A program made the position numbers and the translations under genes. This document shows, in pieces, positions 17,401 through 58,329 of a stretch of 64,000 nucleotides of DNA. A model generated the notes under the pieces. The model saw only the letters and a list, made by a program, of their open reading frames with translations. It was not told where the DNA came from and made no database searches. Source of the stretch: Blasia pusilla (lineage: Eukaryota); assembly GCA_050084515.1 (NCBI GenBank), contig CM114271.1, forward strand, positions 36,766,001 through 36,830,000. The letters are read 5' to 3'. Position 1 is the stretch's first letter. Each line of letters opens with the position of its first letter.

Positions 17401-18430
17401 GATGGGCTCTTGTAGAGGCTGTAAGGAGCTATACCAATCCTTATGATTGGTCATATGCCTAGATGCTCCACTATCGAGCATCCATGCATCTTCACTCTTT
17501 GACTTAGTGGAATATTTTGCCTGTGTGCAAAATCTTCAATTGCTACCCAAACATCTACTTCATGTTCTCCTAGTTCTACAGAATTTCGAGACTCCTTCTT
17601 AGGTCTTAAACAACCGTTCTTCTCATCCTGACTCCTCTTTCTACAATGTTTGATAAGATTAAATTTCCAAGGAAAGCCTTCAAATGATAAAAGCATTTGA
17701 AGGCTTTCCTTGGAAATTTCTTCTTGATATTTGAATTATAATCCTGATTTCTACCTCTCTATACGTTGGCAATAAATGTTGCATCACTTCCCTCTCTTGC
17801 TTTGAAGTGCATCTCGTCTTCTACCAACATTGCACTAAATTGTTCAAAAGTAAGCGGCGTGGGTCTTATTTGAGTATTCAATGCAGTGACCAAACTGTCA
17901 TAGCTTGGAGGCAAAATCCTTATGCATCGACGTGCCAAATCTTCGCTAGACTTTGAAATTCCTACAAAAGCCATATGATCTTGAAGATTCTTGATCCTTG
18001 TCAAAAATTGCTCCGCGCTTTCTCCTTCTGAAATTTTTTCGGACGTAAGCTGATTCTCCAGATTCTGAATCCGAATCTCATTCTCGTTTCATACTGATTC
18101 TTCAGAATGTTCCACGCCTTAGCAGCACTGGTTGTATGCTGAATGAGAGTCTTGACAGAATCAGTTACATTCGTGACAATCGCATATAGAGCATCAGCGT
18201 TTCTGCGTTTCCATGCCAGAAATACAACAGGATCGATATCCCCAGATGAAGATGAACATGCAGAACTCAAAGTAGTTTGTGGATTCGAATCGACCCCTGT
18301 GGCCGTCTCCCAGATCTCAAATGATTCAAGGACAATTCTCATTTTGAACTTCCACAATGTATAGTTAGACCCATCTAACTACCCTTCACCCAACGGAGGA
18401 GGGCGAGTAGGTACTGAAGAAGAAGTAGCC
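14407..18430 (-). pseudogene. Copia gag-pol polyprotein, fragmented by stops and frameshifts
   Basis: ORFs 18001-18357, 17759-18004, 16619-17287, 15604-16110 and 14407-15600 carry successive gag, IN, RT and RNaseH motifs. Confidence 0.93.
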
Positions 18431-18502
18431 ATCTCTCAAGATTTTCTGCAAACACAATAAATCGCAAGATAAAATATTGTAAAACCTATTGCTCTGATAC
18501 CA

Positions 18503-18919
18503 TGTGAGAAAACAGAAAGTGACGAAATCACTTAAATCTTTACACAACTTAGAGATACAAAGTGGCCTAGTTCGTCTGTGCACTCACAGTAGAGCTTCGA
18601 TGCAACCTGAACATGGAGATAACTCGACGTACGAGAATGCGCTACCGTTGTGGCTCCCGACTATTTCACTACTCGAGAAAACTAGGGTTTTTACCTATTT
18701 TTCTTCGTTTCTATTAATAGAAAAATATTGCATCAGGGTGCCCCGCACCCTGATGCAATATAGGGTTAGATAATCCTAGTACCGCTACTCCGTTAACCAC
18801 CTACGTCATATTACTATTACCCTTCGACGTCTAAGTCGGAACCATCAATCTAGGCTTCTCCTCATACAAGGGGCCCGATCAGATTAATGATGCTCAGAGG
18901 AGTAGATTTTGAGAATCCA
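18503..18919 (-). repeat. Copia LTR (5' LTR of element A; outer terminal trinucleotide missing)
   Basis: Adjacent to the PBS. The outer end reads GAGAATCCA-CTTTG instead of GAGAATCCAACA. Confidence 0.9.
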
Positions 18920-18990: not shown

Positions 18991-21900
18991 TGTTGGATTC
19001 TCAACATCCACTCCTCTGAGCACCATTGATCTGATCGGCCCCCTTTTTATGAGGAGAAGCCTGGATCGATGGTTCCGACTTAGACGTCGAAGGAGTCATA
19101 GTAATATGACATAGGTGGTTTACGGAGTAGCGTTACTAGGTTTATCTAACCCTATATTGCATCAGGGTGCGGGGCAAAATTTTTCTATTAATAGAAACGA
19201 AGAAAAATAGGTAAAAACCCTAGTTTTCCCGAGTAGTCAAATAGTCGGGAGCCGCAGCGGTAGCGCATTTTCGTATGTCGAGTTATCTCCCAGTTCAGGT
19301 TCCATCGAAGCTCTTCTGTGAGCGCACGGACGGACTATGCCACTTTGTATCTCTAAGTTTTGTAAAGATTTCAGTGATTTTGTCACTTTTTGTTTTCTCA
19401 CATGGTATCAGAGTAGTAGGTTTTCCAGTATTTTGTATCTGGCGATCTAGTGTGTTTGCACAAAATCTTGAGAGATGGCTACTTCTTCGTTAGTTTGTGC
19501 TCGCCCTCCTCCGCTGGGTGAAGGGAAGTTAGATGGGTCTAACTATACGTTGTGGAAGTTCAAAATGAGAACTGTTCTCGAATCATTTGAGATCTGGGAA
19601 ACGGCCACAGGGGTCGATTCAAATCCACAAGCTAGTTTGAGTTCTGCATGTTCATCTTCATCTGGGGATATCGATCCTATTGTATTTTTGGCATGGAGAC
19701 GGAGAAACGCTGATGCTCTATATGTGATTGTCACAAATGTAACTGATTCTATCATGACTCTCATTCAACATACAACCACTACTGCTGAGGCGTGGAACAT
19801 TTTGAAGAATCAGTATGAGACGAGGAATAAGACTCTGATTCAGAATCTGGAGAATCAGCTTATGTCCGAGAAATTTTCAGAAGGAGAAAGCGCGGAGCAA
19901 TTTTTGACAAGGATCAAGAATCTTCAAGATCAGATGGCGTCCGTAGGAATTTCAAAATCTAGCGAAGATTTGGCACGTCGGTGCATAAGGATTTTGCCTC
20001 CAAGATATGATAGTTTGGTCACTGCACTGAATACTCAAATAAGACCCACGCCTCTTACTTTTGAAAAATTTAGTGCAATGTTGATAGAAGAGGAAATGCG
20101 CTTCAAAGCAAGAGAGGGAAGTGATGAAAGCATTTCGCCAACGCATGAGAGGTAGAAATCAGGATTACAGTTCAAATGTCAAGAAGAAATTTCCAAGAAA
20201 AACCTTCAAATGCTTTTATTGTGGTAAGCTAGGTCATCTTATCAAAGATTGTAGAAAGAGGAGTCAGGATGAGAAGAACGGTTGTTTAAGACCTAAGAAG
20301 GAGTCTCAAAAAAAGGAGATGAAAAGAAGTTAACTGATGTACTGTACATACCAGAGTTGAAGCGAAATTTAATTTCAGTAGCAGTATTATGTGATCGTGA
20401 CCTAGAAGTTCGTTTCAAGAAAACTGGAGCAGTCATTGAGGATGCCAATGGGAAAGTAGTGGGTAAAGGTATACGACGTGGTTATATCTACGAGTTGTAT
20501 ACTTTCACGACAAGTGTAGGTACAGATCTTAGTAGCAGTAAGTTGTGGCATAAGAGATTTGGTCACCTAAGCTTTCCCTTACTAAGTCAAATGCAGAAAT
20601 TTGGCATGGTTGTTGATTTACCACAATTTCTGGAGTGTCGGATACATGTAAAGCTTGTATGATGGGCAAGCAACACCGACAACCATTTCCACAAGAGTCC
20701 AGCAATAGAGCAAAGTCTCCTCTAGAGCTGATTCATGCTGACCTCTGTGGTAAAATGAGAACAATGGCATTATTGTTCATGCTGACCTCTGTGGTAAAAT
20801 GAGAACAATGGCATATTGTTCTAGTGGTTGCAGGAACAAGACGTTGGCATGTATACCAATACGATGTGAATTTTGCCTTTCTGAATAGGAGTCTCAAGGA
20901 GGAGATTTATGTATCTCAACCACCAGGTTTTGAGACACCCGGATCTGAAGAGAAAGTGTGTTTACTTCATCGAGCATTGTATGAGTTGAAGCAAGCCCCA
21001 AGGATATGGTATCAACGAATAGATACATTCTTCCGAGAGAAGGGTCTCATCAAGAGTCTTTCAGAAGAAAATTTGTATGTGTTTTGCGAAGATGGGATGT
21101 ATATGTTGACAATCCTATATGTGGATGATCTTATCATCACAAGAGACCACAGTAAGAAAATAGAGGAAATGAAGGTAGTGTTGAAATCTGCGTTTGAAAT
21201 GTCAGATTTAGGTCTTTTGCACTACTTTATAAGGCTGGAGATTTGGCAACAGTCAGATTCTTTTTTCTCTCTCAGAAAAAGTATGCTAGAGAAATCTTGA
21301 AGGCATTCGGGATGACCGAGTGTAAGGAAGTGGTCTCGCCAATGGAGGTAGAGTTGAAACTCTCGATGGAGGATGTTTCACCATTGGTAGATGAAAAGTT
21401 GTACAGAAAGCTTGTAGGCAGTTTGATATTTTTGTGTAACACTAGACCAGACATAAGCTTCGTTGTGGGAGTGTTGAGTAGGTTCTCGACTAAGCCTCGT
21501 GAGAACCATTGGAAGGCAGGGATGCATGTGTTGAAGTACATCAAAGGCAGTATCGAGTACGGCATCACCTATGGAGCAAGGACGAAAATGACAGGTTTTT
21601 GTGACTCGGATTGGGCAGGAGATTCAGATTCTCGAAGATCAGTTTCGGGTTATTGCTTCTTGGTAGAATCAAGTGTGGTGTCATGGGTCAGCAAGAAGCA
21701 ACCTACAGTGGCTCTTTCTTCTACCGAGGCAGAGTACAAGGAGGCTTGTTATGCTTCTTGTGAAGTAGTATGATTGAGATGGATATTGGAGGACATATGA
21801 GAAGCACCAAAAAGTGCTACTGTAATGTGGTGTGACAATCAGATTTGCATTGCCATAGCACATAATCTTGTGTTTCATGCTCGTACGAAGCACATAGAGA

Positions 21901-22485
21901 TCCAGTATCATTTTTTTCGAGAATTGATCGAGAGAGAGGTTTTGAAGTTAGTCTATTGTCCAACAAAGGATAATCGTGTAGACATCTTCACGAAAGCTTT
22001 GAGCGGAGATCAGCTTCACTGACATCTCAAGGGTCTTGGCATAGGTCAAAGATAGTAGTCCACATGAGAGTGGATATTGAGGGGGGTGTTGGATTCTCAA
22101 CATCCTCTCCTCTGAGTACTATTAATCTGATCAGCCCTCTTATATGAGGAGAAGCCTAGATTAATGGTTTCGACTTAGACGTCGAAGGATTCATAGTAAT
22201 ATGACGTAGGTGGTTTACGGAGTAACCGTACTAGGATTATCTAACCCTATATTAATTTCTTTGTTTCTATTAATAGAAATGAAGAAAAATAGGTAAAAAC
22301 CCTAGTTTTCTCGAGTAGTGAAATAGTCGGGAGCCGCAGCGGTAGCGCATTCTGGTATGTCGAGTTATCTTCATGTTCAGGTTTCATCGAAGCTCTTCTG
22401 TGAGCGCACGGACGGACTAGGCCACTTTGTATCTCTACGTTATGTAAATATTTCAGTGATTTCCTTTCATTTCAGTTTTCTCAGA
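18991..22485 (+). mobile_element. Ty1/copia LTR retrotransposon B, same family, internally deleted
   Basis: LTRs at 18991-19402 and 22087-22485. PBS TGGTATCAGAG at 19403-19413 and PPT just before 22087. Contains gag 19475-20155, zinc knuckle CFYCGKLGHLIKDC and RT/RNaseH 20824-22022. The protease region and the integrase core/RT start are deleted. Confidence 0.95.
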
Positions 22486-35563: not shown

Positions 35564-38756
<3,193 letters not shown>

Positions 38757-42225: not shown

Positions 42226-44571
42226 TGTAAAATTTCTTAGAATAGATCGACAAGCTTGTAGTAGATAACCTTGGAGGAAATTTGAGGACAACCTTAGGAC
42301 GTCAATAGTGATATGTTAAGGCCATGGATAACATGAGAGAGCAAGTTTCCCCTTTGTTTGAGCTCATTCGGGAAATATATAGAGCATTTTACTATTTTGG
42401 ATAAGTTATCGTTCTGAGTAGAGTTGACTTGCACTTTGGGAAGTGATCCTTGATCCCCTAAAGTACGTCAAGTTCCAAGGAGGTGATCTACGAGCATAGG
42501 TTACCATGGAGAGAGCTTGGGAGAGTGAAGGGGATATACCCAAGGAGAGAGATCTTTAAAGTTCATTCTCTCTCTTTTGAACCTCTTCGTACGAGATGGT
42601 GGATCCTCCTTGCCTTATGAGGAACCCAAGCCTCTCATTATGAGAGTGGTTTTGGTTTAACGAGATATATATATGCAAATCGTAGAGACATTTGAGAAAT
42701 TCTAATTACAATGAGAGAATAATAGATTGAGAGCTCTACAATACGGGAGCTCACAGGTATCTCCTTGTGTTTGCAAGTTTGAGACCTTTTCCTTTGTTCA
42801 ATGCCTCACAAGAGTGTTCACGGGAGCAGGAGCCATCCATTTGAGTGCTTTGTGTTGCAATTTTTCGGATAGGAAAATGGTGCGCGGAAGCGCTGTCCAA
42901 TTTTTGCTAGGAGTTGAGTATGAGGTTGGTATTCCCCATGTTGATGCTCTCGAGAGCACCTTGTAGCTTCCTTGATTTGGTTGGTACAAGTTGGCGATTT
43001 TTTTCAGAAATACTGCCAAATTTTGCGTAAGAGTGGAGTTCGCGACTCGATAGTCGCTACCATTTCAGATGGAAGGTTGAATGAAGAAAAAAGAGTTAAG
43101 AAAGGCAAAGATCAATAAGTTGTACACATTGTCAAAGAAACCGTGGACAAGTTCAACATTTAAGCACAAAGCTGTGACTATTTTCGTGGGGTTGCCACAG
43201 CCACCGTGTGAGGAAGAAGCAATCTGGAAATTTTTTGGTTAATTCTTTATGTAAGAAGTAGAAAAGTAAAATATTTTTTTTACCCTTGCGCAAAATCAAG
43301 GTCCTCTCCTCCATTTAGCAGTCATATATCGAGAGGAGTTGGCACCGCCCATGGGGAGTTTCTGCGCTTAGTTTTGATGCCTATAGGGATTGTTGCTGCC
43401 ATGGTCGCTGAAACCTACGTGTCTCCAGCCGTCCAACTCCTTCCGGAAAGTGAAGCCCACCAAAAGCGCCTTACCTCTTACATCCGGATTGCGTGGTGAT
43501 ATGATGATCCGTTTTGTCCATCCGCCACTAGCGGTCTGTCTGCTCGCGTCAACTAGTCTTAACGATCTAACCGAGCCCGGCTTGTGGCTCAGTTCAGCGC
43601 CTATGCACGAACCAACCACTGTACGTACCGAGCCATCAACATTTCCATTCATTGCCATCACCATTGCCGTTATTAATTGATGGTCGATGGTTGATTTCTT
43701 GATTTGGACGCTATCGTTCCTTTGCAACCGTTAGTGTTGGTATCGGCCCAGGGTTGACTAGTGATATTAGAGGATAGGTCCACCGATGGGGTCGAGTTAA
43801 GGGCTATAGTCTGAGATGTCTTGTGATTGGTAGCCCCCTCATAATGATCGAGTATCGTGCCATGACGCCCATAGCCAAAACGCGTCGTGTTGCTCGTGGT
43901 TGCATCATACCGTCTCAATCACGAAGCCGTACCATCTCTTGGGAGCAAAGTGTGTATCTCTAATGGCAATGGGGATGTCGTTGAATATCGCATTTCATCA
44001 CTGAGTGTCATGCATTTGTAGCCATTCAGGGCCGCTAGCGCCTCACCATATCACAGTACTTGCACCACACATCGAGGAGGTTTAAGCAAGGTCATCACAA
44101 GAGAGTACGACTTACTGACTTTAGGAACGACCAAGTTGGGGTTGAGGTTTGCATTTGTTGAGGAGGAGTGACACTGACATCGGTTTTCGGTTACTCATTT
44201 TAATCTTTTGTCTTGCACGTAAGAGGGGTTTCTCGATATTGGGTCGTTATTTGGGATATTGAGGTTTATCCAGATGTAGAGAGCATCATTGATGTATGTG
44301 GTTAGGGGACATAGATTTGATGGGGATGTCCAAGGTTGTATATATATTATGTCGATGAGATAATAGGAAAACAGTCAATTTTCTACACCACGCCGCTTAT
44401 TGCCGCACATTACACGTCTCATTGAGAGTGAGTGTTGCTATTTAGATTGAGTGATTGAGAGATTACTTGCAAGATTAAGATTGATTGTGTGAGAGGAGCA
44501 TAAGGATCATCAAGACGTCCTTTCAAGACTTTGAGAGTCGAGGTGGTGTGCTCAAGAGTAGCTCTAAAGCG
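42226..44571 (+). mobile_element. 5' part (long LTR-like region and leader up to gag) of a Ty3/gypsy copy that is interrupted at 44571
   Basis: Begins with TG. Homologous to the reverse complement of 52920-54775. Its end (GTAGCTCTAAAG) matches 2035-2046 just before gag and continues at 54788. Confidence 0.75.
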
Positions 44572-44617
44572 TGTCGTGCGCATACACATCGCTACACAAC
44601 ATACATCGTTGTCATCG

Positions 44618-45123
<506 letters not shown>

Positions 45124-45182
45124 GTCACCTTCTTGTCATCTATGTCACAAACACAACTCGGAATGTAGAACTACCTACTCTA

Positions 45183-45320
45183 TGTACATCTGGGACACAT
45201 CCATTGTCCTTGAGGAACCCTAGTGAGAGGTGGCGTCAAACATACCATATGCCATCCTCTCAAACATCCATCACAGACTACCATAGTGGCTGCACCATGG
45301 GCGGAACCACACAACATACA
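45183..45320 (-). pseudogene. PHD finger at the integrase C-terminus
   Basis: CMLC...CDGC...WHMVC...PPL..VP.G.WMCPRC is a complete C4HC3 PHD pattern. Confidence 0.92.
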
Positions 45321-45419
45321 CCGCAAGCCTGCAAGAACTATTGCTAAGCTCGGATCAACTATATCGTCAATGTTTGAAAGATGACGTGACGCACATGGTC
45401 CTTCCAAACCATACTATCG

Positions 45420-47380
45420 CGTCCCTCCAATAAGATAACACCGGATGGCAAAACCTCACGCACTCTCAAGATGGTGCGTCTTGCAGTCACATCCAACGTC
45501 ATGGAAGCCGTTTGCTGCAAGTAGACCTAGTCTCCCTGATGAAACCTTCGGATAGTAGGTTGATAACCACCTCCCCGAATAGTCGCATACCTCAACATAT
45601 CTTGATGTTGTGCAATCGCCAAGTTCTCAAACACCATGGGCATCACTCTCCGAAACAACTCAGCCCTCTGAGAACATGCTCGCATTCATACATCAAGGTC
45701 ATGAAGGTTCAACACCTCACCAACATCTTGACGAATGGCCGCAGGTAAATCTGGCTTTCGGACATAAAGCAACAAGTACGCTGAGAAAGACGATGTCGTA
45801 TAGTAAAATCACTTAGTGTGTAAATTCCTTCCTCGTTAAGTGTTAGATAGAGTTTTATTGATATTAAGTAAATTAGCTTAGGAAAAGGAAATTCCCATGT
45901 TTAAACCTCTTTTATACGAGCCCAACTTTAGGAAAAGAGGTAATAAATAAAAGATGACTTTTTAAAAGTAAAGTAGTGAGGTTGGTGCTTTAATGAAAAG
46001 AAAAATTAGTCTTGGTTGGTGGCTAGGTTAGTTGGGGTAATTTGGAAAATATGAAGTGGGTAAAAGAGGATATCTTGGAAGAGATAAGAGGAAATCTACT
46101 TGTGTCAAAATGTGATTGGCTAAGCCTTGAGAAAAGCCATGTGGCACAAGATAAGATTAGTTGTATTTCGTACTCTTGTGGATCACTTGTGAGTATATAA
46201 AAAGCAGGGACCTTCAAGGGTTCATCACCTTCTATTCCACATCTTGATTCTCTTGTGTCACTCTTGAGTGTATGGCTTTGGGATTGCCTGCTCTTCCAAT
46301 GAGACTGGATCACCCCTCTTGGGAGAGTAACTTGACCATGGTCTATTCTTCGAGAGGTTTCTAGAGTGTGGTGTGGGTGTGGAGATAAGAGGTTTGTCAT
46401 CTTAGAGGAGTTTAGTCATACTAAAATAGTGAATGTTTTGGCTTGTTACTTTCCCAATGAGAGTGGATTACCCCTCTTAGAAGAATAATTCCGCCAAAAC
46501 CCATCCTAGAGAAGAGTAGAAAATGTCTGTCAAGCATGGATAGGGGTGGAGCATGAGTTATGCCCGAATTTCCTTTCCTCAATCCATACCATATCAAGGA
46601 AGTCTTTGTACATAAGCATTCGTTTACTCGCTATTTAGTTTATCGTTTAGGCGTTCATGAACCAGGTCATTCAATCTCCAACTCCGGTGATCCTTCGTAT
46701 CGTCACATATGGAAGGACATGGGATTGTACTTTGTATGTCCTTATCAAGTGATTCATGGACGTCAATAGGCCTGCTCAAGTAGGGTTTAACACACCGTCT
46801 GCACAACTCGTTCCGCTAGTCCATCCGCCTCAGGATGATCTCGCGAAGTAGTGCAATGGTTGATCAATGCTTAATCACACAAGGCCTGAAACTCCCCTCG
46901 GAACTCTGTAGCCTGGTCTGTCAACACCTCAAGTGGTGCACAGTAATGACTCAACACTCGATCTATGAAGGCATATGCTACTCCCTCACTGGTTTTGTTA
47001 GGCAATGCAACCAACTCTATCCACTTTGAGAAGTGCTCGACCATCACCAACACATAACGACTATAGTGCTTCGTCAAAGGCAAAGGTCTTGTAAAATCCA
47101 AACTTCATGTATAACCTAAACCCATAATCGGAAGTGGATGCAAATCTGGAGTTGGATCATTGAACGATGCTTGGACTAGATCACACACCATGCATCTGGC
47201 ACCAAATTGTTGAACGTTAGTCTGCATGCCTCGCCACCAATACTGAATCTGGAGCAAGTTGTACGTGCGCTTCACTCCAAAATGACCCAACTCTTCGTGG
47301 GCATGACGCACCAAACGTGCTCTTTGCAAAGGATGAGGCACAACACCCACTCTACCATCCTCCCACACACGCAACACATG
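45420..47380 (-). pseudogene. Ty3/gypsy integrase, interrupted by an insertion
   Basis: HAHEELGH...CMVC zinc domain, DFTRPLP, VLTDQATEF and HPEADGLAERVVQTV. The C-terminal part resumes at about 45741. Confidence 0.9.
45745..46792. mobile_element. About 1.05-kb foreign non-coding insertion in the integrase, probably an LTR remnant of another family
   Basis: The integrase reading breaks at 46793 into TGTTAAACCC (on -) and resumes near 45741. The insert is AT-rich with a TATA-like TATATAAAAAG. No TSD found. Confidence 0.6.
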
Positions 47381-47407
47381 TGTGCCCTCCCACTGAAACC
47401 GTCTGGC

Positions 47408-48965
47408 TCACTGTAGGATCCGATCCCGCTGTCTAGCACCCACTGTGCTTGCAACGTTGCTAGTACGCACGTACTCCAAGACCACTCCATCGTCGTGAAA
47501 ATCTCGGCCACCTGTCGTCTCCTCACCGGCCTCTGGATCTAAGGACTTTCCATCAGACCTCGTCGTCGAAGTCTCAACAATCTGGCTCTCCAAAGCCAAC
47601 AAGCCCAAATAGGCTGACGCATACCATCTTGGCATCAACTCCTCATCACTCTCACCATGCCAACGAGCTCCTGTCGCATCTCGCTCACTTGGGCATGGGT
47701 TACGGCTCAAACCATCTGCATCCGGGTTGAGCATCCCAGGTCTATGCACCACTTGGAAGTCATACTCTTGCAACAAAAGAGCCCACCTCGCAAGCTTCCC
47801 TGTAAGCTTGTTGGACTCCATCAACCACTTAAGTGGCTGATGATCAATAATGATGGTAAAGGGATTGCTAAATAGATAACATCTAAAATGTGCGACAGTC
47901 CACACTGCAGCCAATCACTCACCCTCATACAAGCTTTACTTTGCCTCTGCAACGTTGTTCGAGCGATTAGCGTAAGCCACAACGACCTCTCTACCATCAT
48001 TGTCATGTTGGGTGAGCACGGCTCCAAGCCCCAACATGCTCCAATCGATATGCAACTGGAAAGGACGCCCCCTGATCAGTCTCCTCAATATGGGCGCGGA
48101 TGACAATATATCCTTGAGCATAAAAAATGCTCTCTCTTGCTCATTCCCCCAGTACCACTCTTGATCCACCTTGGTCATCAAGGTTAGCGCCTTCGGAATT
48201 GAACTGGAACCCTTGACGTACCTTCGATAGAAGTTCGCCAATCCCATGAATGCATAAACTTGACTCACATATGTAGGGTGTGGAATGTGTGAAATACCCT
48301 CTACCTTTGTCTATTGCACACCAAGGCCCCCTTGGTATATCATATGACCCAGGTACTCAATCTGTCCATAGAAGAACTTGCACTTGCCTTGATGTAGCTT
48401 GAGCCCATGTAACTACAATCGTCAAAACACCTCTTCTAGTTGTCGCTTATGCTTCTCAACCGTAGCGCTTAACACTATGATGTCATCAATATAACACCTA
48501 GCAAAACCCAGACATGCCAAGATCTTATCCATGACCCTCTGAAACTAATCCGGGGCGTTCTTTAACCTGAATGGTAAGAACCGCAATAGTACAAAAAATC
48601 CTTCCCGTGAGGATCCATGCCCCAAAATCAAAGTCTTCTACCTTTCCTCCAATCTGATAGGCAGCCGATGGTATCCGGCTCGCAAATCCAATGAAGTGAC
48701 GACCTTTGCATGCCCAATTGCATTAAAGATCTCCTCAAGGATGGGCATGGCATACCTATCGGACTTTGTCTGCCGATTGATAGGTCGGTAATCTCCACAC
48801 ATTCGCCTATCCGTCCAGTTGCCATGCACATCCTTCTTGGCGAGCATGACAATGGCAGATGCATACTCTCCATGCGACATCTTCACTAGTCCTACTCCAA
48901 CCAAGTCCTGGATCCTACTTTGAATTAGAGCCCTCTCCATGTCACTTTACCTGTAGGATTGTCGG
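47408..48965 (-). pseudogene. Ty3/gypsy reverse transcriptase and RNase H
   Basis: RMCGDYRPIN, LDLRAGYHRL, CYIDD, FMGLANFYRRYV, GLGAVLTQ, IDHQPLKWL and HRPGMLNPDADGLSR. Confidence 0.95.
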
Positions 48966-49417
48966 AAGATCGGCGTGCCACTCGACAACTCAATGCGGAT
49001 CCTTGGACCCTTCAGCATACCCAAATCATGCATACTAAATGCAAAACAACTCCTATAACTCCTAAGAAACTAGTGTATCCGGCCCCGCTCTCCTTTTGTC
49101 AATTTAGGGCCCATATCAGGCTCCCAAGTCTCCATCGTGACTACATTAGGACTCTCCGGCGCGGGTGTCGGTGGTTCCTATGGTGCAACCCCATCTCGGA
49201 CAAAAGAACTCTCAGCTCCACGTGCAGAACCCGGAACCACACTCGATGTTGTGACTATCATCTCCTAGCGTACCTACAAAACATCCCAAGAAGTCCAAGG
49301 GTGTCTCTCCCGATCATCCCTGGTGTGTTGATCTCCTTGGGTCTCACCCCTAGCCGCTGCCTCAACCGTCTCGGTAGGCATGGGGTAACAACGCAACAGC
49401 TGTGATATGTCGCATCC

Positions 49418-50376
49418 TCAAACAACTACTCCTAAGCTGAAAATCCATGTCAAGCAGTTCAGGTCCATCGCTTGACCCAAGACATGACGTTGTGATGCCT
49501 CTGATAGTGTCGATACTTCCGTCACTCCTGTGGGGAATCCCATCGCTCGCTCTTGCTCGTCGGCGTTGGGCTCCACCAACCTCTGTAATTGGTCATCCCA
49601 AACCAAGCCAGGTCTGACCTCCTTGAATGTATAGGAAGCGGGAAAACTCACCAATGTGGGAAAGGCTGCCCGTGGCCTGCCAATTCACTTGACCACAGTC
49701 AACGACGGTCGATCATCTAGCCTCACTGCTTGTGATCAATGGTCGGGATCCAATATAGATCCACCAACAAATCAGAGGGGCTCTCCACTCTCGCATATGC
49801 CCTATGTAACACCTCGTGTGATACCAAGTCGGTCCACCAAAGACGCGGGCGATGTGCTCGTGAACCCACACTCGCCATATCTAACAACACTGTCGGGCTG
49901 ATCCACGCGCGCACTTGATGTGCACTCGTCACCACACGGGACCTCGAATCGCCCAAAATTGGCACATTCTCCAAAATGTATATTGGAGAACGAGGCTGAT
50001 GCTCTTATAAATGCCGCAAGATCCGCATCATCTCCCAAAATAACCTGGACCGAGTGTCAGCAAACCCGCTACCTCATCCAACACTTGATTGGCCCTGACA
50101 TGCCCAACCAACAATGACCAAGTCTATGGTCTACCCGCTCCAAGTCCTGCACCCCCAACAATGAAATGTCCCTCGGTAGGGAACTCTAGTAACCCTGAAT
50201 GGCCGACACAGACAACAAATCGAGAAACAGAGGCGTAATAGCGCCACATGGTGAAATGAAGCGCGCCTCACAATATCATCAATCTCCACATACAGGTATT
50301 GCTGCACGCGCACTCTAGCGTGCAAAATAACAACTAACCCAATGTTGATCCCTCCAAAGAGATCCAACACCCGAAT
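49418..50376 (-). pseudogene. DNMT3-like C5 cytosine methyltransferase domain within the retrotransposon polyprotein
   Basis: Motif I IRVLDLFGGI, II YLYVEID, IV IDLVIVGWACQG (50092-50127), VI YILENVP, VIII RAHRPRLWWT, IX ERAMGFPTGVT and X RHVLGQAMD, all in canonical order. Contains stops and frameshifts. Confidence 0.92.
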
Positions 50377-50799
50377 ACTCTTCTCTTGGATGCACCACAC
50401 AATCGAGGTGATGTCCAAAGGGGTCATAGCAACACTCCTGCCTACTTGGGGTTCCTCTGACCCGTCACACTCTGGTGCAAATGTCTCGCTCCACACGATT
50501 TGCATATGTTCAGTGGCTAAGCGTCAAAGCTCCTCAATCGAGCCCCAAAGCGGCACCTCTCCTCCACGGACTCATGCGGCTACTATGACACTCCTCTGCA
50601 TAGAAATATCACAAACGGGAGTATCCTATGCATGGACATGTCTCTCAATCAAATCACTAGGCCAAGTGATGGCACTGCTAAATGGTGCTAAGGTCATCGT
50701 CTCTCCTTGCCATCGCTTGATCACTGCACCTGTGAATCAAACGGGTAATGAGCTAAGGCGCCCATCACCTGACTGCCATCCTAGTCTGTAGGACGATGA

Positions 50800-52700
50800 C
50801 TCCTCCTTGTAATCCTCAGAAAACCCCATCGGATATAACATTGCTCCACCAACCAAGACGTCGTAGGACTCTGCATCAGTCACTGTCGCCTTGGCTCGCA
50901 CCATAGACTCATCTCAAGGATGTCTCGGGCGAATCCTCACCACGACCTCATGTCAGGTGATATACTGTGTGGTACTCGCTGCTCCCAAGGATGTCTGCAT
51001 CCAAAATGGAAAATGCTCCACATCGGGTCTCGTCAAGCCCAATCCTCTCAATAATGCTTTCCCCAACATCAGGGGTTGCACTCCTAAATCCAACAAGACG
51101 CGTTGCGGACTAAAAGCTCTACCTTTGGGACTCACCAACAAGAAGACCTCTCCCTGATTATCCAGCAACACAACACCTGGAGAAACCATGGCACGCTCTA
51201 TCGCGGGTCTAGCGGGCATCTCCGCCATCCTAGCAGCCGCGGCCTGCCATGAATCTGACGTGGACAGCCCGAGCATCCGCTGCAAGGGCAAATCCATCAC
51301 CTCCTCTACAATCACCCATGAACGTGATGCAGGAACTTCAAATCCACGCTCACATAGCATAGCGGCTAGCCAAAAAACCTCGGCGGACGTACCTCCCAAC
51401 GTCATAACATCGGAAGCAGAAAATAAAGGAGCGCGGGACACAATGGTGACCACCCCCAACAACGTGCTCGACACATGCCAGCAATAGGAGTCATCGCACC
51501 CGCTTCTCCCATCGCCCTTTGTGCCTGCACACCAACAACATCACCAACTCTCCAAGAACTCTGATCATGACCCATCGATGGGGTCCTCATTGCCTCAGAC
51601 AACGTGAAAGACTGAGTCTATTTCCTTTTTTCCCCTTGATGTGGATCCAACTCTACGGTTGCTCCACGCATCACAACTGCGGGGGCCTCCATCTGGGCAA
51701 CCCCGCATATCCAACCAAGATCCTCCATATGATGTCGATGCCACGGATCCGGCATCATGTAATCTCAATGCCATAGCGGCAATCTGCTCTTGTAGCTGCT
51801 GTATCTGAGCAGCCATCCCAACCTCGCGCCCGGCGTCTTCCTTGATGCGTCTAGGTGGTGGGACTCTACCTCCTCCACGGGAAGCTCCACTACCCTGTCG
51901 GACAACTCCAGCTCCTCGTCCCCCAACGGGACCACCTGGTGTACGATCTCTAGCCCACGCGGACCAGCTACTCACTCTTGTGCCCTCACTTGTCCTCGAT
52001 CCGGACGTAACTCAGGGTGTAAACTGAAACACTTGACGCGTGTATGACCATACCTCTGAAAATAGTCACACTGATAACCTCTTGGTGCAACACCATCTCC
52101 TCCTCCATGCTAAGGCACACGTCCATAACCCTGACGAGTGCAATCGCATTGATGATGGGCTCCACCACATGACCAACAAGTAATTATAGGCGGCTGCTCC
52201 ATTGCCGCATATGAAGGCACATGTCTTTGTGGCACGGCCTCCCAATATCCTCCCTGAGCTCGCGGTGCCACAATCGACCTATCTCAGAGTCCACGTTGCT
52301 GCATTGGTGGTGGAGACAATCGTTACTGCTCTCGCCCACAACCCATGGTGGCTACTCTCTCCTCCGCCATGTTGCGCTCAATGTTCTTGGCGGTCCTAAA
52401 AACATCTCTCAACGTAGGGGAGTTGTTCATAAGGAGCACCCCCTCCCGCACCCGTGTCCGTAGGGTCCGGTCCAGCATCGCGTACCATGACTGGATAGCC
52501 TAAGCCTCTGTCATCCCCTGAGTGACGTTGATCAACCGACGCAAGCGAGTGTAAGCCTCACACAAACTCTCACCCGGGCGCCTCTAGAAGTCGTGTATGC
52601 TGTGCAACTTCTCCGTCCGTACCCCCTGGTAGATCGCCCTCAACTCAGCAAAGAACTCAACCACGAGGTTGAACCTGGGACGAACCCAATATCTGAAAAT
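50800..52700 (-). pseudogene. Ty3/gypsy gag and aspartic protease, degenerate
   Basis: Manual translation gives TCWSCGGAHHQCDC and QCDYFQRYGHTRVKC (zinc knuckles). RVLLDLGVQPL corresponds to VLLDSGAQPL in the 1389-5240 copy. Confidence 0.85.
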
Positions 52701-52703
52701 CCC

Positions 52704-54775
52704 TGTCACATCTTTTAGGATAGATCGGTGAGATCTAGTAGAGTGCCTTCGTGAGTAGTGGAGGACATGCTCAGTAGGTCAAGGATGACCTACTAAGGCC
52801 CCAGGAAACCTGGGCGAGCACCCCTTCGTTTCGGCCCATTTGGAGCCATATTGAAGAACTTACTATTTTAGGTAAGTATCATTTTGAGTATATGATCAAA
52901 TTTTTATTTTTGGTAGGTGGCCTTTGACCTCCTACATCAAGATAAAAGACCAGAATGGGTAACCTGACAATAATGTCGATGCCGCTCCTCGGCAACTGCA
53001 AATCTTGACCCCAACTCGGTCGTGAAGACAACTCCTCCAATCAGCAAGTCGTACTCCTCTCATACCGACATTGCTCAAACCTCCTTGATGTGCGGTGCTG
53101 GTCCAGCGGTTTGGTGTAGCACTGGAGGCACAAAACGGCTACAAACGGCACGGCACTCGGCGGCATACCCTCCTCAATCAGAAATTCACACGCTCTCCAC
53201 CTTAGTGAAAAATCCGCTCCACGATCAAGACGGTGCGGTGCAGCCATAAGCGGCACGACATGGCAATCGGTGGCGCGTTGCATCTACGAGCGTCACGGCA
53301 CGGTAGTCGATGATCATTGAGCGCCTACCAATCCCAATATAGCAACATGAAATGAAAACTCAAACACCATAACCCGAGGTCACCTTCCATCACTGATTGA
53401 TGACAAAACTACGATGACGGTGACGGCCAAACCAAAGTACGTGGTGGCGGCCCAAGTCAGAGAATCAACGGTGGTCATGGTAGACCCTTCACTCCATAAT
53501 GGCGGCAATGGCAACCAAAGGGTGGACAACAGCTGAACACGGCTCTTAGCAGCACTAGGCGATGGCAGCGGCCGACGGTGCATGGTGGACGATGGACCGT
53601 TGAAGGTGATGCTTGATCGTTGATGGTGATGCTTGACCATTGACGGTGACTGTTGACCAAAGATTGTGATGGTTGACCATTGATGGTGACAATGACGGCG
53701 ACGGCCGCCGCCGGCACGGCGGCTGGTAGGGTTTAAACAATTTAACCCTAAAAATCGCCTAGCAATGGTAGTTTTTCAAGATTGACCATAAATTTTTGCT
53801 CACAACTCCAAGTTGCGCACTATTTTTTGCTAAACGTGCACAGCTTCACGATCTACCATAATGTCAAAAATATTTGGAATTGGACATTCTAGTAGAAACA
53901 GTCAGGGATTGTCCTAAAGCCCAATGTCTCTTTCTCCTACACAAAATTTGGCTGCGCTTCCGCGCTGATTTCTCCCAACAAAAATGTAAAACATGTGAGA
54001 ACACAAATCAGCAAGCTACCCGGTGCTCTAGAGAGCACCGTCATGGGGCAATCCACCCCCATACTCAATCCCTATAAAAAATTGGATAGCGCTTCCGTGC
54101 GCCACTCTTCCACACAAAAAATCGGCAAAGGAAACATCACAAGTAAGCGGCTCTTGCTCGGGTGAGCACTCCCATGAACCTCTGAATAGGAAATACAATC
54201 CCCAACCTTCAAAACCACAGAGTGACCAGCAAGCTCCCCCATAAAGCTCTCTCGCTCACTCATTCTCTTTTTGTAAAATAAGATCCAATTTCTCTCACAA
54301 CACCATAGTTCTCACATGTGTGCACTCTCACATGTCTCTCTCAATGTCAAACCAAACCCACTCTCCTAATGAGAGGCTTGGGTAACACACACAAGGCAAA
54401 CAAGACCATAGCTCCGCCGCCTCATGCCAAAAGGCTCAACAAAGAGAGAATGAGCTCTCAAGCTCTTTCTCCTTGAGGTATACCCCTCCCCTCTCCCAAG
54501 CAAGCTCCATGGTAACCTATGCTCGCAAGTCACCTCCTTGGCTCTTGACCTGATGTAAGAGGTCAAGGAATACTTACCAAAAATAGAAATTTGATCATAT
54601 ACTCAAAATGGTATTTACCTAAAATAGTAGGTTTCTCAATATGGCTCCACATGAGCCGAAGGAGAGCAGCTTTCTCGGGGCCTCAGCAAGTCATCCTTGA
54701 CCTACTGAGCCTATCCACCACTACTCATGAAGGCGCTCTACTAGATCTCACCGATCTATACTAAAAGACGTGACC
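52704..54775. repeat. About 200-bp inverted repeat arms (52704-52918 and 54574-54775) flanking the LTR-like region
   Basis: TGTCACATCTTTTAGGATAGATCGGTGAGATCTAGTAGAG... is the reverse complement of ...CTCTACTAGATCTCACCGATCTATACTAAAAGACGTGACC. Similarity extends through TTTGAGTATATGATCAAATTT. Confidence 0.88.
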
Positions 54776-54787
54776 AGTGAGGTTTCA

Positions 54788-57080
54788 AGGGTCTCCATTT
54801 GAGGGACCGCCTTGATCTCCTTTTGTGTCGTCTTCAAATGAGGGGGAGGGCGTAGAGGAGTTTGTTAGTGCATCACATTGAGTGGTCCTATTGTTTGGGC
54901 ATACAAGATGGAAGACCGGGCTAGAAGACCGCGTAGGTTTTTGGGAGTAGTGGATACCATAGAGTTACACCACTTTAGTGCGGAGTTCAGGTGTTGGTGT
55001 GACTCACAGTGGGCCAAGAATACAACCTTTTCACAACATGGAACATAATGTTGCAACACCTAGAGGGCGCACTCATGGACAATATCAATCAATTTTCCCA
55101 AAGGTACGCACCCGAGATTGAGGCATGGAGATTCCACTATGATCCAAATTACGTGTCATGGACTCAGCCAATTCTAGAGGAGGAGGAGGAGGAGGAGGAG
55201 CTAGGGGAGGCTACTTCCTCTGCCACTAGTGAGGTTCAGGGAGGGGTGAGTCAGACTAGAGCAGTTGCATCATCCAATCAGGTTCGTCCCAGGTTCAACC
55301 CCGTGGTTGAGTTCTTCGTGGAGCTACGGATGAACTACCAAAGGAATGGACTAAGAAGTTGTGGATGCTCCACAACTTCTATAGGCACAAAAGAGAGAGT
55401 TTGCGGAAGACATTTACTCGCCTGCGTTGTCTGATTAGTATCACTTGGGGATGATAGAGGCCCATGTTGCTTTGTTTAGGCATGGTATAGGATGTTGGAA
55501 CAAGTCTTGCAAAAATGGGTGAGGGATGCAATATTCTTATGCGCACCTCACCTATATTGAAGGATGTATTTGAGATGGCATAGTGCATTAAGTGCAACGA
55601 AGTTAAGGATAGTGTAGCAGCCATGAGTCACATGCAAGAGCTGTCACAATTACTTGCATCACCAATGCAACAACGAGGATTTTGGGAGAGGAGTGTAGCA
55701 TTGCAAGCTCAAGGAGGTTATCATGAAAGTTACGTTGGTAAGCCCCATGCATACCCAGACAATTCAGGCAGTGGCGAGGAGCGAGATCCCGAGAGATCGA
55801 CATAGCAGGGATGATCACGAGTGACATCCTTGGACTTCTTGGGATGATTTGGAGGTAGGTCAAGAGATGGCATCCAAATGCATCGAGCATGGTACATAGT
55901 CCCACACACCGAGGAGGGGAGAGTTTAGAGTTTATGATAGGGGAGCAATGGGATTGCGCCATAGCAATCACGGATACCAAGGCCTAGAAGTCCTCCATCA
56001 ATCATGAAGGAGACTTGGGCGATCAACGCCAAATACATCATTTCCTTAGGAGTCAAAGGAATTTTTTTGCATTTAGTATGCATGATTTGGGTTAGCTAAA
56101 GGGTATAGGGATCAGCATTGAGTTGTCTAATGACATGCCGATCTTCCAAAGACCCTACAGAAACAATGATATTGAGAGGGCTCTAATTAAGAGTAGGAGT
56201 TGGGGTGGACTAGTGGAGATGTCCCATTGAGAGTATGCAGTTAGCATTGTCATGCCCGCCAAGAAGGATATGCATGGAAATTGGACGGATGAGCGGATGT
56301 GTGGAAACTACCAACCTATCAATCAGCATACAAAGTTTGATACATATGCTATGCCCACTCATGAGGAGATCTTTGATGTTATTAGGCATGCAAAGATCTT
56401 CAGTTTGTTTGGATCTCTGATCCGGATACCATCAATTGCTTATCAAATTGGAGGACATGCAAAAGATGGAATTTTGGGGCATCGATCCTCACAGAAAGGA
56501 TTTTTTGTACGAATGGCGGTTCTTACCATTTGGGTTAACGAATGCCTCAACAGAGTTTCATAGGGTTATGGATAGGATCTTGGGAGGCCTTGATTTTGCT
56601 AGGTGTTACATTGATGACGTCATAGTTTTAAGCACCCTGTTTGAGGAGCATGAGCGACATCTGGAGGAGATGTTTTGACCATTGAAGTTAAATGGGCAAA
56701 AGCTACATCCAAGAAAGTACAAGTTCTTCTACGACCAATTTGAGTACTTGGATCACACGATATATCCAAGTGGTCTTAGCATTCAGAAGAAAAAGTTAGA
56801 GGATATCTCGTGCATTTCACGCCCTATAGATGTGAGTCGAGTTCGTGCATTCATGGGATTGGAAAACTTCTATCAACTATACGTCAATATATTGTTGATA
56901 TCTAGATTGCAAAGACACTAACCTTGCAAACCAAGGTGGATCACGAGTAGCACTAAGAGGATGAGCTGGATAAATAATTTTAGTTGGTCAAGGACAAGTT
57001 GACGTCCGCATCCATAGTCAGAAGACCTATCAGGGGACATCATTTCTAATTGCATATAGATTGGAGTACGTTGGGGCATC
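54788..57080 (+). mobile_element. Continuation of the 42226 Ty3/gypsy copy: partial gag, internal deletion, RT and start of RNaseH region
   Basis: 54788-55700 is homologous to 2045-2930. ORFs 56252-56921 contain MCGNYQPIN, LPFGLTNA, CYIDD and RAFMGL. No protease or DNMT sequence is present. Confidence 0.88.
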
Positions 57081-58329
57081 TTTCATTATGATGCAAGCAA
57101 GATTTAGAAAGTGGATGATCTTGATATGTGGATCCAAGCATGTTCTCAACATGCTTGAATGAAGCTCACCGATATTCAACTATATCACATATACTTGAAT
57201 ATCAGTGAGCTTCATCAACACCGTGGAAAATTTTCTTACTTGAGGTGCATGACCACGCCAAAGGAGATAGTTGTGAAGACTAAATACGATTACTGGACTA
57301 TTGAACAAATCCACCAAGTCCTCCATTGCTGCGAGGTAGAAATACAGACTAAGCAGATTTTACCGTCTTCCGGACCGTCAAGTACTTCAGTACATTATTG
57401 TAACAATTTGACAATAAGGTACATAAGATTTTTATAGCTTCTTTTCTCAAGTTTTTGGACCACCAACGGACATAACCAACACAAAACCTTCAAATTTCAA
57501 GGCTATCTTTCAATCCTCTCCCTCTTTTAGCCTTTCAAAGAGCCTCCCAACGGTTAATCAAAAGGTAAGCATTGGCATATATGTCGAGGTCTTTTTCACG
57601 ACAGCGTGCACACTTCTACTTTTTATGTTTAGGGTCGACCAAAGCGAGACACTCGACCAAAGGGGAGAGGTAAATTTGGTGAAAAGAATCTGAAATCATT
57701 TTTCCAGTAAATTTTGTAAAGTAATTGAGACCAAAATAGGATAAAAGAACTGAGATATGAAAAGATCATTCCAATGCACTAAAGATCCAGTGAAACGCTT
57801 GAGCAGAGATTGAGAAACCACCTCCAAGCTATCAAAATGATTGTTGGGTTGAGGGCTACAAGAAATGGCCCAAGAGGACTTTCCCAAAAGATAGGGAGGG
57901 AGTGGAGTTCTCTCAAAATATATGAGGAGAAGGGTCTTCAAGGGAGTTTGGGATCCGAACCCCATTTTGGGGAACCTTAAGGATGAACCAAGGGCATAAG
58001 ATGGATTGAGAGGTTGGCTTCGGGTGTGAACATCATCCAAGTCCAAGGGGATAAATTATGGATATCAACGTTGGACCTTGATTCGTGACTCAAACATTGG
58101 GTTCCAACTAAAGACTCGTTGAAGATCCATTGGGAAATTGGGACCGCCACACGTGTTAACGTTGTTTTAGGTTCCTGGACTATGAAGGAAGTTTGTCCCA
58201 AATTTTGAATAACTTGCTTCTATTGGGGAGGAAGGGGTTAGATCGGTATCTTGTCCCACTTAGAACTATTGAGCTTAAAGGATAGACCGAGTTTAGAACT
58301 TGGGAGGGGCAAGACTGGTTGATCCAAAC

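Follow-up and report, generated by a model that had tools for sequence, protein, structure and literature searches.

The stretch of DNA considered here, 64,000 nucleotides from Blasia pusilla (assembly GCA_050084515.1, contig CM114271.1, positions 36,766,001 to 36,830,000 of the forward strand; "the window" below, numbered from its first letter), holds a decayed Ty3/gypsy retrotransposon, copy A, with a cytosine-C5 methyltransferase domain of the DNMT3 type between its protease (PR) and its reverse transcriptase (RT). Comparison by tblastn with related polyproteins, colinear along the entire element, gives the order gag-CCHC-PR-DNMT-RT-RH-IN-PHD (RH, RNase H; IN, integrase); the PR-RT-RH-IN order of Pol and the CCHC knuckle in gag identify it as Ty3/gypsy. 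Its parts are listed below, with the evidence for each in brackets; proteins found in the searches are numbered with a P.

45180-52950, minus strand: copy A as a whole, a decayed Ty3/gypsy element (Pfam on pieces of open reading frames (ORFs); colinear tblastn with Marchantia and environmental polyproteins)
51573-52939, minus strand: gag with CCHC knuckle (tblastn with P0005 residues 133-488, translations, blastn)
50800-51471, minus strand: aspartic protease region (tblastn with P0005 from residue 514 onward and with P0172)
49427-50427, minus strand: DNMT3-type C5 methyltransferase domain (METHYLTRANSFERASE), a pseudogene as judged from its reading frame (PF00145, PDB alignments, comparison with P0005)
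47369-49147, minus strand: reverse transcriptase and RNase H (Pfam and tblastn)
46794-47506, minus strand: integrase, zinc-binding and core domains (Pfam Integrase_H2C2 5.7e-16 and rve 2.2e-9; tblastn)
45793-46793, strand not given: foreign repeat of about 1 kb inside the integrase (read depth, RNA strand bias, loose read ends)
45383-45832, minus strand: integrase C-terminal part (tblastn with P0195 residues 1460-1598 and with P0025)
45180-45413, minus strand: PHD finger ending Pol (Pfam PF00628, E 9.3e-12; tblastn with P0195 and P0025)

A preliminary description, made by a model from the letters alone, had placed a C5 methyltransferase between the protease and the RT of a Ty3/gypsy element here; Pfam and colinear tblastn agree with it, and its coordinates for the domain were accurate. 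As three uninterrupted ORF pieces, the domain yields no Pfam match at E ≤ 0.1 (0/3) and, where it matches PDB chains at all, does so weakly: 22 matches for the first piece, 21 of them DNMT3 (best E 0.1), none for the second, and 24 for the third, 23 of them DNMT3 (best E 0.17). Read through in a single frame from 50523 to 49723, with three stops (TAG, TGA and TAA) written as X, it matches PF00145 with an E-value of 4.7e-9 (36.5 bits; cut-off 22) and aligns with DNMT3A from motif I to motif VIII (residues 6-173, E 2.4e-8). The best 29 of its 44 PDB matches are DNMT3A, 3B or 3C, in keeping with the DNMT3 likeness originally proposed, and M.HhaI comes next (E 0.019); the part with motifs IX and X is in a different frame and aligns with DNMT3A residues 235-275. 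The motifs extend along the minus strand from about 50379, where motif I (IRVLDLFGG) begins, to 49427, the last position of the motif X region (LGQAMD..), the series being LDLFGG (I), GWACQG (IV), ILENV (VI), RPRLWW (VIII), ERAMGFP (IX) and VLGQAMD (X). These motifs are colinear with DNMT3A, and the domain is therefore not of the permuted DRM type. The canonical order and the exclusion of DRM had been called correctly in the preliminary description, but the strings it quoted (IRVLSLFDGI, AHRARYFW, ERVFGFP, RLLGRSW) are those of human DNMT3A; the window itself reads IRVLDLFGGI, AHRPRLWW, ERAMGFP and VLGQAMD.

Compared with the intact Marchantia protein P0005, the copy A domain is interrupted by five in-frame stops, shifts frame near 49757 and loses the frame between motifs I and IV; motif IV, at about 50100, lies between two stops and keeps the Cys, with the Pro replaced. 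The break near 49757 is private to copy A, because most DNA reads there (548/700) differ by one base in length. Where at least 60% of the DNA reads differ from copy A, the latter has A/T against G/C in the reads at 386 of 639 sites, and the reverse at 49 of 639: the mark of C-to-T decay. The copy A methyltransferase is a pseudogene that encodes no enzyme, and copy A itself has no function; with five stops and the frame breaks, the working enzyme once envisaged for copy A has to be given up. The ratio of observed to expected CpG is 0.71 in copy A, 0.55 in copy B and 0.49 in copy C (for the latter two, see below), compared with 0.56-0.60 in neighboring copia elements and 0.90 in the ACL5 gene. 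CpG depletion was considered as a sign of self-methylation and rejected: it is similar in the adjoining copia elements, and ordinary for a silenced element.

The affinity to DNMT3 is clearer in relatives with open frames. P0005 has 25 of its 27 PDB matches among DNMT3A, 3B and 3C (best E 1.7e-8), followed by M.HaeIII (E 0.001) and the tobacco DRM (NtDRM; E 0.0026), with no DNMT1 or CMT chain among the matches listed. A structural model of P0028, a 325-residue protein from the same clade as copy A (predicted local distance difference test, pLDDT, 93.9; predicted template-modelling score, pTM, 0.91; 25 aligned sequences), has DNMT3A, 3B or 3C at all of its best 50 Foldseek ranks in the PDB (top E 2.3e-20, TM 0.71/0.80). 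By sequence and predicted fold, then, the domain is closest to DNMT3 among solved methyltransferases. The mammalian DNMT3A, 3B and 3C have the same motif order and the same short target-recognition region, but only about 22-24% identity; the domain of the family sits inside a retrotransposon polyprotein and is not accompanied by PWWP or ADD. Pfam found neither of these domains in the pieces from the window or in the scanned relatives (the PHD finger is elsewhere, after the integrase), nor did either turn up among ten methyltransferase-only proteins. No intron-like structure was seen in the domain.

Copy A is not alone. Four further copies or fragments of the family lie in the window:

2057-5245, plus strand: copy B, gag-CCHC-PR-DNMT (blastn to copy A, tblastn, inverted-repeat pairs I11, I13, I18, I19 and I24)
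690-1342, minus strand: copy E, protease end to methyltransferase motif I, NLFGG (tblastn with P0005 residues 695-920)
54551-57109, plus strand: copy C, gag followed by RT-RH, head-to-head with copy A (blastn, tblastn)
5240-5544, minus strand: copy F, gag N-terminal fragment adjoining the break of copy B (tblastn with P0005 residues 28-120)

Copies B and E have the domain at the same place as copy A. The preliminary description had named two outcomes that would refute it, the lack of a significant C5 methyltransferase profile match and a domain missing from that position in other members; neither came about, the PF00145 match being significant and copies B and E having the domain. By blastn, copies A and B share 70% identity along 2806 bp; the methyltransferase of copy B runs from motif I to motif VI (4819-5245) and is then cut off, and its motif IV reads PY in place of PC, with loss of the catalytic Cys. 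In copy C, gag runs directly into the linker preceding RT, and the missing 2.85 kb corresponds to 52245-49397 of copy A (CCHC, PR and DNMT); because the end of gag, the protease and the domain are absent together, copy C is a deletion derivative. Copies A (49723-50523, minus strand) and B (5019-5245, plus strand) have two stop positions in common, after SVG and after RHL, where P0005 has His and Gln. These were considered as proof that the family spread while already dead, and found uninformative: a single C-to-T change could make each stop in a heavily decayed copy, and parallel C-to-T decay is a plausible cause, with propagation of an already dead element as a further possibility.

Proteins with the same arrangement, in open frames, occur in other species. 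The copy A read-through retrieved ten longer proteins at 37-49% identity, eight of them named Marchantia polymorpha, and the methyltransferase region of P0005 retrieved 79 proteins: 15 M. polymorpha gene models, one from Calypogeia fissa (77% identical to the query), one from Sphagnum fallax (50%), others from Haematococcus lacustris and Monoraphidium neglectum, P0237 (named for a bacterial metagenome bin), and a remainder of unnamed environmental proteins, many with precomputed Pfam assignments to RT, RNase H, integrase and PHD. The Marchantia models P0004, P0005, P0010 and P0172 read gag-CCHC-PR-DNMT(-RT) in one frame, and the polyproteins P0049 and P0301 read CCHC-DNMT-RT-RH-IN. The Marchantia and Calypogeia "hypothetical proteins" (Mp_4g09160, which is P0005; MARPO_0091s0058, which is P0172; P0175) have the gag-CCHC-PR-DNMT-RT order of copy A and fall in its clade, with 53-63% identity over the DNMT part and 55% over RT-RH, but are open reading frames, whereas the copies in the window are broken. 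A search without a profile against 1.84 billion representatives gave 1397 matches at E ≤ 0.001, 231 of them at E ≤ 1e-10; the best 150 library matches look retroelement-borne or orphan.

Local phmmer classification of 236 fetched proteins put 58 in type 1 (PR-DNMT-RT, the order of copy A) and 88 in type 2 (RT-RH-DNMT-IN(-PHD); for example P0025, P0026, P0035, P0038 and P0214); in 89 the methyltransferase stood alone, and one had no methyltransferase match. Cluster look-ups supplied names for some of these: type-1-clade proteins from four Closterium strains, and type-2 proteins from the chlorophytes Scenedesmus sp. PABB004 and Hariotina reticulata. A PHD finger is present in 39 of the 88 type-2 proteins as full RT-RH-DNMT-IN-PHD and in a further 22 partial forms; in type 1 it was found only in P0235, but most type-1 gene models end before the integrase. 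Two members of the type-1 clade have unusual company: in P0121 a single protein combines RVT_1 and the C5 methyltransferase with an adenine methyltransferase resembling Dam, and P0048 has a copia-type gag beside the C5 methyltransferase.

In an unrooted maximum-likelihood tree of 136 methyltransferase domains (LG+G4, without outgroup, with support from the Shimodaira-Hasegawa-like approximate likelihood ratio test, SH-aLRT, only; the rows are copy A, its breaks written as X, and 135 proteins whose domain is covered almost in full), copy A groups with seven Marchantia rows, Calypogeia, P0002 and P0176, which together make a clade of 11 (SH-aLRT 100). This is nested in a clade of 43, also at SH-aLRT 100, made up of 37 type-1 rows, five unclassified rows and copy A. 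The type-2 rows lie outside it, as does one long-branched type-1 row, P0235. The Pol of Scenedesmus sp. PABB004, H. reticulata and the corresponding environmental sequences resembles that of copy A in being Ty3-type, with a related domain (30-40% identity) and a PHD finger after the integrase, but has the domain between RNase H and integrase rather than between protease and RT; of rows of this kind, 85 form one supported group outside the 43-row clade and seven lie elsewhere. The occurrence of a second domain position outside the type-1 clade suggests either two captures or one early reshuffling.

The family is high-copy and transcribed, its methyltransferase part included. Four runs (one whole-genome, three RNA), all bearing the organism label of the DNA run that best contains the stretch, were mapped to 45150-54600 at 80% likeness or more. 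Of 12,434,590 DNA reads, 170,814 (1.4%) fell on this interval, only 309 of them at least 99% alike; DNA depth is about 1370-2160 over the DNMT bins, compared with about 2000-3550 over most RT/IN bins. The three RNA runs placed 7,072 of 10.13 million, 7,805 of 11.97 million and 7,695 of 11.05 million reads on the element. The two strand categories of RNA differ about 5- to 100-fold across most of the coding part, with depths of 30-78 versus 1-8 over the DNMT bins. In a sequencing-run index, five runs contain part of the stretch (shares 0.21-0.26), all of them DNA or guessed DNA, and no RNA run is listed there as containing it. A joint seen in RNA only, 47938-49010, skips 1071 bases of the RT region (8, 20 and 3 reads in the three RNA runs); it is absent from the DNA reads, and its ends are not GT..AG on the element strand.

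The remaining parts of copy A are unevenly preserved. Compared with copy C and P0005, its gag lacks about 500 bp near the N-terminal end. The protease active-site motif is DLG, compared with DSG in copy B and Marchantia; Pfam gave no match (0) on the copy A protease piece and matches below threshold (E 0.08-0.2) in copy B, but in the relative P0179 PF13650 passes (26.2 bits versus a cut-off of 24.3) upstream of the DNMT, and the region in copy A is identified as protease because it is homologous to relatives in which this profile passes. RVT_1 is weak in copy A (E 0.0092, below the Pfam cut-off), RNase H strong (RT_RNaseH_2, E 4.9e-16; RT_RNaseH, E 1.2e-14), and RT-RH together are 55% identical to P0172 over 593 columns (tblastn). 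The PHD finger occupies the place of the chromodomain in chromoviruses. The repeat at 45793-46793 is of another kind and not part of the copy A family: its DNA depth is about one third of that of the element, its RNA strand bias is opposite, and more than 1000 read ends are loose at each border.

Beyond the coding part, segments a, b and c of the family's flanks recur at 65-81% identity (42433-44569, 52928-54581, 1454-2046 and 9211-10449), and on either side of copies A and B they lie inverted. The junction between inverted segment a and gag is common among the reads (159 DNA reads at 52939|54550). Two readings of these inverted flank segments are possible: inverted terminal repeats some 2 kb long, or nested head-to-head neighbors. 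Directly after the end of copy A there is a (CA)n microsatellite of about 250 bp (44600-44870), and an 81-bp segment occurs twice, 182 bp apart and 99% identical (44862-44941 and 45043-45123).

The window also includes a host gene:

35564-38753, plus strand: thermospermine synthase (ACL5), multi-exon (protein matches)

For one exon of ACL5, the best named matches are Riccia sorocarpa and Klebsormidium nitens (both 85%), followed by Marchantia polymorpha and Calypogeia fissa (83%); over all exons, liverwort proteins reach 59-61% and others 50-58%, none being identical. The gene has an N-terminal extension common to the Marchantia protein. Together, ACL5 and the methyltransferase tree point to a land plant closest to liverworts as the host. 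Two Ty1/copia copies, inverted and 91-95% alike, lie at 14379-18480 (minus strand) and 19430-22090 (plus strand); they have long open frames (398 amino acids of RT/RNase H) and repeats like long terminal repeats (LTRs) at 13954-14184 and 18503-18733.

Elements of this kind are already known. De Mendoza et al. (2018; PMC5890265) described KnitGypsy-Dnmt3 in Klebsormidium nitens, in which non-rearranged DNMT3 domains lie in the Gypsy Pol ORF, with key residues conserved and Ka/Ks below 0.2; it has few copies, and its repeats, according to a figure legend, are arranged as in DIRS elements rather than as LTRs. The preliminary description had pointed to this report, and the paper says what was attributed to it. 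The copy A family is a further member: it shares with KnitGypsy-Dnmt3 a DNMT3-type domain in the Gypsy Pol ORF, a streptophyte host, conserved catalytic residues and, on weak support here, purifying selection. Around copy A no direct LTR pair was found, and the flank segments are inverted. The family differs in having a land plant, probably a bryophyte, as host, in accounting for about 1.4% of reads, and in ending Pol with a PHD finger. This likeness is one of description; no Klebsormidium retroelement protein was among the named matches of the searches. SymbioDIRS-Dnmt3 of Symbiodinium also has a DNMT3-type domain in a retrotransposon Pol, and is the only case with demonstrated de novo CG methylation, but is a DIRS element with a tyrosine recombinase from a dinoflagellate, and its authors consider it an independent acquisition (PMC5890265). 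Two later texts, PMC12344493 and bioRxiv 10.64898/2026.05.21.726589, cite the Klebsormidium element as a streptophyte case. As far as the literature was searched, Gypsy-DNMT3 has so far been described only from an alga: no report from liverworts or other land plants was found (the supplements of PMC5890265 and PMC12344493 may list bryophyte cases), nor any naming the Marchantia gene identifiers of these polyproteins. The preliminary description had pointed out that an occurrence next to an ACL5 gene of land-plant type would extend the system, and with liverworts as the closest named relatives it does reach land plants.

Taken as one explanation, it is very probable both that the domain is the pseudogenised DNMT3-type C5 methyltransferase of a dead copy of a high-copy Ty3/gypsy family, with Pol in the order PR-DNMT-RT-RH-IN-PHD, and that this family belongs to a streptophyte Gypsy-DNMT3 lineage present in Closterium, liverworts and Sphagnum, grouping with the Marchantia and Calypogeia elements. 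Across rows only 30-40% identical, the catalytic residues are kept: the motif IV Cys in 37/38 type-1 and 76/76 type-2 rows, the motif VI Glu in 38/38 and 76/76, and the motif VIII arginines (37-38 of 38; 75-76 of 76). Glu takes the place of the Pro of PC in 10/38 type-1 and 35/76 type-2 rows.

A number of points weigh against this explanation, or against a live enzyme in the family. All domain-bearing copies in the window are broken and none is intact, and the family can bear to lose the domain, as seen in copy C, although the protease was lost alongside. Repeat and blastn comparisons within the window found no direct LTR pair flanking copy A; the native ends are unreadable because the copies are truncated and nested. 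The ratio of nonsynonymous to synonymous substitution (dN/dS), a comparison proposed in the preliminary description, was computed between copies A and B only, with codons paired through P0005. The DNMT part gives 0.36 over 139 codons (bootstrap 0.22-0.67), whereas gag gives 0.48 and the protease/linker part 0.57. This lends weak support to purifying selection on the domain, dS being near saturation, 110 of 500 bootstraps having failed, and protein-guided pairing favoring low dN. The RNA of the element is sense by the usual library convention, the strand being uncalibrated; its strand bias flips near the 5' end (bin 52734-53049), and it may come from dead copies. Catalysis by any Gypsy-DNMT3 is unproven, and in the one published test of such a domain, a yeast assay, that of Klebsormidium gave no methylation, a result its authors called inconclusive (PMC5890265).

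Could the domain instead be a host DNMT3 gene or pseudogene, brought by chance between retrotransposon fragments through nested insertion? The region is indeed a patchwork of nested, truncated copies, and the domain is most like host-type DNMT3. However, the gag-PR-DNMT junctions recur in copies B and E, and the same junctions are single open frames in the checked Marchantia, Calypogeia and environmental proteins; in addition, nothing resembling introns, PWWP or ADD was seen, and the domain, just as the remainder of the element, is covered thousands of reads deep, all of which makes such an accident very improbable. Capture of a host fragment by copy A alone, without a role in the family, can be given equally little credence: copy C, which has no domain, would fit it, but copy C also has no gag end or protease and is a deletion derivative, the domain recurs at its usual place in copies B and E, DNA reads cover it at 50-70% of the RT/IN depth, and the catalytic residues are conserved across a deep clade.

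A different kind of alternative concerns what live members would do with the domain: it may be kept for some other use, acting on host DNA near the insertion or on RNA, or serving as a DNA or chromatin tether for the integration complex. The negative yeast result for the Klebsormidium domain would fit this, as would the replacement of the Pro of PC by Glu (10/38 type 1, 35/76 type 2), the proposal of RNA methylation made by the same authors for a LINE-borne domain (PMC5890265), and CpG depletion in the copies (0.49-0.71) that is no stronger than in neighboring copia (0.56-0.60). On the other hand, the Cys, ENV, RxR and S-adenosylmethionine (AdoMet) motif are conserved family-wide, which is more in keeping with an active enzyme than with a tether only, and in yeast the DNMT3 domains of the Symbiodinium DIRS elements do carry out de novo CG methylation (PMC5890265); another use is possible but on the unlikely side.

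For de novo methylation by live members, one possible mechanism is the following. The domain would be translated within Gag-Pol and freed by the protease; it would travel with RT and integrase, and would add de novo methylation to newly made cDNA or to a recent insertion; and the PHD finger at the end of integrase would read the state of the histone H3 tail and steer integration, as chromodomains do in chromoviruses. This scheme applies to live members only and is put forward tentatively. The preliminary description had already supposed that the enzyme was cut out of the polyprotein and could methylate the cDNA of the element itself or its insertion site; neither goes beyond conjecture, given also the Klebsormidium domain's lack of methylation in yeast.

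What makes the family of interest is that it extends Gypsy-DNMT3 to land plants, that it is abundant and transcribed here, and that Marchantia has relatives with open frames. The broadest formulation, that Gypsy-DNMT3 is a streptophyte-wide lineage still live in land plants, making up about 1% of the DNA here, transcribed with its methyltransferase and represented by open frames in Marchantia polymorpha, is as a whole rather doubtful. If true, PR-DNMT-RT in streptophytes versus RT-RH-DNMT-IN in chlorophytes would mean two captures or one early reshuffling. For annotation, such domains, now filed as hypothetical proteins, can inflate counts of "DNMT3" genes in bryophyte genomes. The role of retrotransposon-borne cytosine methyltransferases is an open question, and the Marchantia relatives bring genetics and good methylome methods to it. 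If the enzyme is active, this would be a case, in a plant amenable to genetics, of a retrotransposon that marks its new copies, and possibly host DNA as well, with 5-methylcytosine, and the PHD finger would add a histone-reading arm to the same element.

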